From Yuukianura sp. NJ FZ-2021 (lineage: Eukaryota), in NCBI GenBank assembly GCA_046563655.1, contig CM102284.1, positions 1,736,001 to 1,800,000 of the forward strand: a stretch of 64,000 bases of DNA. The letters are read 5' to 3'. The translations under genes and the position numbers were made by a program. Positions 56,929-57,326 of the stretch are shown here, one piece after another. Numbering within the stretch: the stretch's first letter is position 1; every line of letters starts with the position of its first letter. Under the pieces are notes generated by a model that saw only the letters and a program-made list of their open reading frames with translations, was not told where the DNA came from and did not search any database.

Positions 56929-57326
56929 ATGCAATCCAGTTTAAAGAAACTTTTCGTTGTGACTGTAGTTTGCTCACTCTTCAGTTTTGCCATGGGTAAA
57001 TTTTTTCATAAAGGAGACGACGATGACGATGATGAACCAGTAAAGTCAATTCATTCTCATATTTCAAAATTTTAAAAGTCAAATAACTAACAAAACTACA
57101 ACTATTTCAAAATTTTTTGTTTCTTTAGTGTCGCCCTCGAGGCGCGAAGTGTGACGATGATGACGACTGTTGTGGCAACATTCCCTGCTCATTTCTAGGT
57201 TGGGCCGACGCAATTGAAAAGTTGTGTCTGCATGTACCAGACTGGACAAAAGGCTTCATTCTGTCCAAAGGCAAAGGAAAATATGGAGAAGCACTGCGCA
57301 GAAGCACTGGAAAGCGAATGGCATAA
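56929..57326 (+). CDS. Secreted inhibitor-cystine-knot (knottin) precursor B, 102 aa, 2 exons (56929-57039, 57129-57326)
   Basis: MQSSLKKLFVVTVVCSLFSFAMG-KFFHKGDDDDDDEP | CRPRGAKCDDDDDCCGNIPCSFLGWADAIEKLCLHVPDWTKGFILSKGKGKYGEALRRSTGKRMA*. Signal peptide, acidic spacer, C-X6-C-X5-CC-X4-C-X12-C, basic tail ending GKR. Phase-0 GT-AG intron 57040-57128. Confidence 0.85.

Follow-up and report, generated by a model that had tools for sequence, protein, structure and literature searches.

Positions 56929 to 57326 of the 64-kb stretch of contig CM102284.1 analysed here (the window) probably contain a real protein-coding gene, as predicted from the sequence. This gene, termed gene B, lies on the plus strand and encodes a precursor of 102 residues in two exons. 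Its core carries the six cysteines of an inhibitor cystine knot (ICK; peptides with this knot are called knottins), and by profile and predicted fold gene B very probably specifies a knottin of the Toxin_12 type, another member of an established kind of peptide. We tentatively read it as a real, lineage-restricted and fast-evolving secreted knottin that may serve host defence. The original prediction for this DNA had described a hidden two-exon knottin gene with signal peptide, acidic spacer, an intron directly before the first cysteine (Cys1), ICK core and basic tail. All of these elements were present, each where it had been placed:

56929-57039, plus strand: exon 1, 37 codons from the ATG at 56929, reading MQSSLKKLFVVTVVCSLFSFAMGKFFHKGDDDDDDEP
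56929-56997, plus strand: start codon and predicted signal peptide MQSSLKKLFVVTVVCSLFSFAMG, 23 residues (hydrophobicity scan; filter for signal-like open reading frames)
56998-57039, plus strand: acidic spacer KFFHKGDDDDDDEP, net charge -5, which closes exon 1 (sequence, charge count)
57040-57128, plus strand: intron, 89 nt, phase 0, GT-AG, GC 0.20
57129-57326, plus strand: exon 2, 65 codons, opening exactly at the Cys1 codon; CRPRGAKCDDDDDCCGNIPCSFLGWADAIEKLC, then LHVPDWTKGFILSKGKGKYGEALRRSTGKRMA and the stop
57129-57227, plus strand: knottin core CRPRGAKCDDDDDCCGNIPCSFLGWADAIEKLC with the spacing C6C5CC4C12C, GC 0.525 (cysteine pattern, Pfam, model)
57228-57326, plus strand: Gly/Lys/Arg-rich cationic tail LHVPDWTKGFILSKGKGKYGEALRRSTGKRMA and stop (57324-57326), net charge +6, RR and GKR motifs, GC 0.465
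57575-57580, plus strand: AATAAA, the sole polyadenylation-type hexamer between the stop of gene B and the end of the converging neighbour gene

Gene structure and the question of chance

The reading frame of gene B was intact, with neither stops nor frameshifts. The frame of exon 2 is opened by an in-frame stop, the TAG of the acceptor itself, and contains no Met before the last-but-one residue (...RMA). Because the frame starts at the acceptor TAG and has no usable Met, exon 2 is translatable only via splicing. Among 20 phase-compatible combinations of ATG and GT within 600 nt upstream only 56929/57040 yielded a complete signal-like peptide. The intron has the donor CCA/GTAAAG and the acceptor TTTAG/TGT (slashes mark the junctions), a branch-like CTAAC about 40 nt upstream of the acceptor and a T-rich tract. 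The hydrophobic core of the signal peptide reached a Kyte-Doolittle mean of up to 2.8 over 11 residues. Its cleavage is predicted after AMG; this site was assigned by visual inspection, guided by the -3/-1 rule and the hydrophobicity values, and not by a dedicated predictor.

The frequency of such arrangements was assessed with a loose regular expression for ICK spacings, which was run over the six frames of the window with a 19-nt tandem repeat masked. It matched two sites outside the repeat, i.e. the core of gene B and positions 49231-49124 on the minus strand, in a second knottin gene termed gene A (see below). The chance expectation per window was 0.10 sites in Markov-1 sequences and 0.08 in block shuffles, and 0.7% of 300 Markov-1 sequences had at least two matches. 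A crude filter for signal peptides passed only 15 open reading frames with an ATG in 2 x 64 kb; each ICK site had one of these immediately upstream. Five further matches fell inside the tandem repeat (30.1-30.8 kb); these were spurious Cys-rich open reading frames and were masked.

The base composition followed the proposed exons. GC was 0.24 upstream, 0.38 in exon 1, 0.20 in the intron, 0.50 in exon 2 and 0.30 downstream; at the stop it fell from 0.465 in the tail to 0.28 in the following 100 nt. Codon log-odds were trained on 19 long open reading frames of the ABCA region of the window (training mean 0.182). The in-frame value of gene B, 0.197 per codon, was the highest of its six frames and level with this training mean. 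The 230 nt upstream contained no clear TATA-like element. We conclude that the arrangement of gene B is not a chance open reading frame.

Predicted knottin fold and search for relatives

The Pfam search and the structure prediction, which the original prediction had proposed as checks, both pointed to a secreted ICK-type peptide. On the whole of exon 2, family PF07740 (Toxin_12) scored 21.4 bits (E 4.1e-4, residues 1-25 aligned) with a gathering cut-off of 21. On a core of 37 residues the score was 23.5 bits (E 8.6e-5), above the cut-off by a small margin, and residues 1-33 were aligned to profile positions 2-28 of 30, so that all six cysteines are covered. The tail had no Pfam match. The two ESM Atlas clusters closest to the gene B peptide, at 0.88 and 0.87, were both of the theraphotoxin/Toxin_12 kind; by the calibration of the tool this is a lead only.

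An AlphaFold model of the whole of exon 2 had a pLDDT (predicted local distance difference test) of 55, with residues 41-65 below 50. A Foldseek search with this model returned 15 rows, all with E > 2, of which 11 were knottins; it was superseded by the model of the core alone, which had a pLDDT of 78.8 and a beta-hairpin at 20-23/30-33. The neighbours of the core model (20 Foldseek rows, 50 VIA rows) were nearly all knottins and spanned residues 1-37. The top one was the sea-anemone peptide Ms11a-2 (Z 4.6, root-mean-square deviation 1.8 A over 36 residues), and the others included several spider toxins, asteropsins, plant knottins, agouti proteins, tachystatin B and purotoxin-2. A minority were IGFBP and Dickkopf-type cystine-rich domains. 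Thus gene B has the order C-C-CC-C-C with short loops that marks knottins, and at the level of a model from a single sequence it has a compact fold that carries a beta-hairpin towards the C-terminus and can be superposed on solved knottins. Provided that the gene is real, its product very likely adopts the knottin fold, which would imply the disulfide connectivity I-IV, II-V, III-VI with the third bond passing through the ring.

The similarity to Toxin_12, the huwentoxin/hanatoxin-type spider ICK family, extends to the six cysteines, the spacing C6C(5)CC(4)C and the motif D-C-C, and many members of the family are among the predicted fold neighbours. On the other hand, gene B differs from it in a last loop of 12 residues, a second loop that consists of five Asp and nothing else, an acidic core and a basic tail of 32 residues after the knot. 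It also differs in the intron directly before Cys1, the lack of an Arg-type propeptide site and a host that is probably not a spider. Pairwise matches to Toxin_12 members were not significant (best E in the Protein Data Bank, PDB, 0.87).

Sequence searches for relatives of gene B were negative throughout. A HMMER search of 1.84 billion protein representatives found no homologue. Its sole match at E <= 0.001 (P0006, E 1.3e-9) was a translated tandem repeat of 1259 residues that shows no knottin pattern; it was discarded as an artefact. A word-indexed protein search with exon 2 gave no candidate, and phmmer against the PDB nothing significant, the best values being E 0.87 (Aca toxin 1, 6nk9) and E 2.3 (conotoxin GXIA). 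In metagenome contigs the pattern of gene B had 280 matches, none of which was confirmed. In viral contigs two of 17 matches were confirmed (L001 and L002), and neither was retained. L001 proved to be a chance occurrence of DDDCCGNI in a Pro/Ser/Ala-rich frame, with other long open frames running across it. L002, whose sequence was not read, agreed with L001 in E-value, identity, match coordinates and matched query residues and presumably represents the same match. Within the window tblastn with both exons of gene B returned self-matches only and no paralogue.

In these searches gene B is an orphan. The lack of relatives is in part a matter of sampling, because the proteome of the host itself seems to be absent from the protein collection. 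This absence is suggested by two exons of the window: a carboxylesterase exon had no match at E <= 1e-10 among 340 word-sharing candidates in the large protein collection, and for an ABCA nucleotide-binding exon no protein exceeded 54% identity.

Charge, processing and possible roles

The spacer of gene B carries a net charge of -5, the core of -3 and the tail of +6, which adds up to about -2. Eleven Asp form two unbroken runs, one of six in the spacer and one of five that makes up all of loop 2; both runs are (GAY)n at the DNA level and could have grown by slippage. The tail, announced as about 30 residues rich in Lys, Arg and Gly, has 32 residues with 5 Lys, 3 Arg, 5 Gly and 1 Pro. Its hydrophobic moment was calculated in windows of 11, 14 and 18 residues and compared with 2000 shuffles. 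The model shows no confident helix there (pLDDT below 50), and a lytic helix like that of CsTx-1 is not indicated.

The residues ahead of Cys1 are D-D-E-P, with neither an Arg nor a dibasic pair, which bears out the earlier statement that a canonical Arg processing site is lacking at this position. With the processing quadruplet motif of spider precursors, Arg and dibasic sites all missing before Cys1, the mature peptide probably retains the spacer, as the original prediction had suspected, short of cleavage by an unknown protease. At the other end, GKR had been named as a cleavage and amidation site. GKR is a classical signal of this kind and it is present, yet it is not compelling: G-[KR]-[KR] occurred anywhere in the tail in 26% of the tail shuffles and within the last seven residues in 4.7%. 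Amidation at the GKR of gene B is possible, the motif being suggestive at most. Stepwise processing is described in PMC6832493 (available portion).

The layout of gene B had been likened to that of modular spider toxins such as CsTx-1. Toxins of this type do exist; the available portion of PMC6832493 describes CsTx-1 and purotoxin-2 as modular toxins with a cationic C-terminal domain, which is a membrane-binding alpha-helix. The order signal, acidic pro-region, ICK and cationic C-terminal extension given there is common to gene B, and so is the cationic module as such (32 residues, net +6). Furthermore, purotoxin-2 (2mzg) has 64 residues and matched the core with Z 3.0, while exon 2 of gene B has 65. 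The analogy nevertheless remained weak. The tail of gene B is Gly-rich with a moment no higher than that of shuffles, the confident helix and any sequence similarity are lacking, and the Arg at position -1 of the spider processing quadruplet motif (PMC6832493, same portion) is missing. The order of the parts and the cationic tail were upheld, the processing motif was not, and a helix was not indicated.

The second ICK site of the window belongs to gene A, a complete two-exon knottin gene at a distance of 7.5 kb from gene B:

49088-49426, minus strand: gene A, complete (ICK pattern, Alo-3 match)
49426-49351, minus strand: exon 1 of gene A, MNFKVLLGIVLVFAMVSTAQATWNG, signal peptide
49350-49234, minus strand: intron of gene A, phase 1, one codon before Cys1, GC about 0.06, with simple repeats like ATTATTAATA
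49233-49088, minus strand: exon 2 of gene A, core CHAAVGDICTWNGGQGSCCSGMECYVQASWTPEARC with the spacing C7C8CC4C11C

Its best match among solved structures was the antifungal knottin Alo-3 (1q3j, E 0.035), and no Pfam family matched. The spacing is close to the C6C7-9CC3C10C of springtail Alo peptides, as given in the available portion of PMC10051947. Gene A and gene B have in common the layout of signal exon, intron and Cys1. Within the window tblastn with exon 2 of gene A returned self-matches only. Gene A is flanked by TATAAAAA, which precedes the ATG by about 90 nt, and by an AATAAA that follows the stop at a distance of about 50 nt.

Three indirect supports lead us to favor, tentatively, a role of gene B in host defence: its Alo-like neighbour shares the exon layout, knottin antimicrobial genes have been published for springtails, and the inferred host has a soil-microbe ecology. 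According to the available portion of a survey of five springtail species (PMC10051947), 12 Alo genes, which encode knottin antifungals, are present in four of the five. ICK peptides are also known from non-venomous crustaceans, insects and early hexapods (PMC11288129). Because ICK and Alo peptides have already been reported there, a knottin gene in a non-venomous arthropod is not surprising, and the surprise voiced in the original prediction was overstated. Like gene B, Alo-type peptides (Alo-3, 1q3j) are small secreted six-cysteine knottins of non-venomous hexapods.

As a mechanism we propose that the two-exon arthropod gene would be expressed as a secreted precursor from which the signal peptide would be removed. 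The remaining peptide would consist of the disulfide-knotted ICK core of the huwentoxin-like Toxin_12 type between a poly-Asp spacer and a tail rich in Gly, Lys and Arg, which might be processed further at RR or GKR. It may act against fungi or bacteria in a microbe-rich habitat, where the stable knot would serve as a scaffold and the cationic tail would provide affinity for microbial surfaces. Spacer and loop 2 contain 12 acidic residues, which may offset the charge of the tail and of basic core residues during synthesis and storage. Acidic propeptides have been proposed to compensate charge in spider toxin precursors (PMC6832493, in the portion at hand). The overall charge of about -2 fits such a compensation, which here would possibly be built into the mature peptide.

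Several results weigh against this view of gene B as a defensive knottin, and we put the role forward with the same reserve as the view as a whole or slightly more. Toxin_12 passes its cut-off only narrowly, and profiles that are short and rich in Cys match by composition. All fold-search scores were weak (Foldseek E >= 0.5, Z <= 4.6), which is normal for 37 residues, yet makes this model-based evidence qualitative, and a single-sequence model of a cysteine pattern may simply echo network memory. The codon log-odds places gene B no higher than the top 11% among the 303 small open reading frames of the window, many of them real exons, and the missing homologue in the HMMER search belongs here as well. 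Cationic antimicrobial peptides do not typically have a mature form that is close to neutral or acidic, as that of gene B would be (-2). The tail was not detectably amphipathic, its best helical hydrophobic moment being reached by 29-59% of the shuffles. Gene B does not fit the springtail Alo spacing (PMC10051947, available portion): its loops are X6, X5, X4 and X12, so that loops 2, 4 and 5 fall outside, and Alo-3 was not among its phmmer matches. Full Alo gene models have 61-62 residues and, unlike gene B, neither an acidic spacer nor a basic tail. Finally, gene A and gene B had no BLASTP similarity (E 4.0), and their introns differ in phase (1 vs 0).

Other roles were weighed on the same evidence. 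Gene B could be a toxin-type modulator of ion channels or receptors directed against other animals in saliva, a defensive secretion or something venom-like, the knot binding the channel and the basic tail anchoring it to the membrane as proposed for CsTx-1 and purotoxin-2. Toxin_12, the sole family matched, is an 'ion channel inhibitory toxin' family, structural and language-model neighbours were mostly spider neurotoxins including purotoxin-2 and the membrane-active Hm-3, and two-domain toxins with a cationic C-terminal part are documented (PMC6832493, available portion). Yet a shared fold does not reveal the target, the precursor lacks the processing motif of spider toxins, with Arg at -1 and Glu at -2 to -4, and the tail is without an amphipathic signal and was modelled with low confidence. 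Gating-modifier toxins usually show a basic or hydrophobic face, while the core of gene B is acidic. Moreover, the likely host lineage appears to be a non-predatory arthropod, and gene B is a single-copy orphan within the window instead of part of an expanded toxin family; we consider a channel modulator unlikely. An endogenous neuro- or endocrine signalling peptide with dibasic processing and C-terminal amidation at GKR, like the agatoxin-like peptides of insects and decapods, would make use of the RR and GKR near the C-terminus, and the position of the latter in the last seven residues was infrequent in the shuffles. Agatoxin-like peptides carry eight cysteines and gene B six. They too are toxin-like cystine knots, used as neuropeptides in non-venomous arthropods and with a possible amidation signal in common with gene B, and they are well conserved in decapods (PMC4888303, available portion). 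Neuropeptides are usually conserved across arthropods, while gene B was without a homologue among the representatives searched; the boundary of spacer and knot has no dibasic site, and the motif G-[KR]-[KR] is frequent in the tail shuffles when its position is ignored. We regard a signalling role as quite unlikely.

It is rather unlikely that the locus does not function at all, be it as chance open reading frames next to splice-like sites or as a young or decaying gene that is not expressed or not translated. In the absence of homologues nothing speaks for selection, the two (GAY)n runs could be microsatellite-like DNA prone to slippage, a clear TATA-like element is lacking, and the Pfam and fold scores are marginal. 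Against this stand the joint improbability of the ICK pattern at 0.1 per window, an acceptor exactly at Cys1 and a frame-compatible donor after a full signal peptide, together with exon-like GC steps that end at the stop, the in-frame codon bias and the intact frame. Poly-Asp runs are a typical trait of proteins that bind calcium or mineral, and Zn2+ is required by some anionic antimicrobial peptides. The 11 Asp in spacer and loop 2 would suit a small protein that binds Ca2+ or Zn2+ or is associated with mineral or cuticle, its poly-Asp runs being functional and the knot merely a stable scaffold. Composition is the sole basis of this idea, no family or structural match speaks for it and the neighbourhood suggests no cuticle or mineral genes, which makes it very improbable. 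A slim chance is given to a self-masked knottin, in which the Asp loop and the retained poly-Asp N-terminus would fold onto the basic tail, or bridge to it via Ca2+ or Zn2+, and keep the peptide inert until a change in ions or proteolysis at RR/KR frees the tail. Such a charge switch would have evolved de novo in a soil hexapod, with no descent from the modular toxins of spiders.

In the view of gene B as a secreted defensive knottin, its unusual traits, i.e. the all-Asp loop and the acidic and basic flanks, may or may not be of importance. If gene B is expressed, a knottin which is unannotated and free of homologues joins the peptide repertoire of a probably non-venomous arthropod, and Toxin_12-like knots with add-on modules would arise outside venomous lineages as well. 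Knottins are prized as stable scaffolds and as antimicrobial or channel-active leads, and a knot with an all-Asp loop would offer an unusual natural test of the charge tolerance of the scaffold. Gene B opens or settles no long-standing question; two-exon mini-genes of this sort can be found from raw sequence alone.

The surroundings of gene B

The other features of the window were as follows:

about 5600-40900, plus strand: long run of ABCA3-like transporter exons, at least two of them nucleotide-binding (23644-24213 and 33924-34463)
30082-30764: tandem repeat with the 19-nt unit TGTGCGCAGTTGCGCAGTT, about 36 copies, 88% matches, open in all six frames
51001-51636/51737-52225, 52998-53642/53760-54266 and 55285-55911/55994-56479, plus strand: three tandem two-exon genes for multi-pass membrane proteins, 57-81% mutual identity
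57685-58517, minus strand: gene converging on gene B, secreted-looking, with the signal-like start MDPVLSLLLLFLAVSSA and Gly-rich stretches, no Pfam match
59910-60437, minus strand: carboxylesterase-family exon (Pfam COesterase, E 4.3e-13)

Scans of the whole window for Rfam families and tRNAs returned nothing. Among 120 fetched ABCA proteins the best aligner to the window was P0014 from the springtail Orchesella dallaii, with 6335 bits summed over tblastn hits compared with 4932 for the next one. It also had the highest identity of the 120, which was only 39.6%. The host appears to be an arthropod, perhaps a springtail or a member of another early-branching hexapod lineage. Because P0014 aligned over 8787 columns in 77 high-scoring segment pairs, several tandem ABCA copies are suggested. 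The only solved relative of the carboxylesterase exon at E <= 1e-5 was Drosophila Esterase-6.

The three tandem membrane genes matched no Pfam family. Their nearest Atlas clusters were arthropod hypothetical proteins (0.97), and in lower-ranked clusters gustatory-receptor families occurred in a minority of the members (7tm_7 in 23%, Trehalose_recp in 17%). The three genes look like a lineage-specific chemoreceptor-like array.

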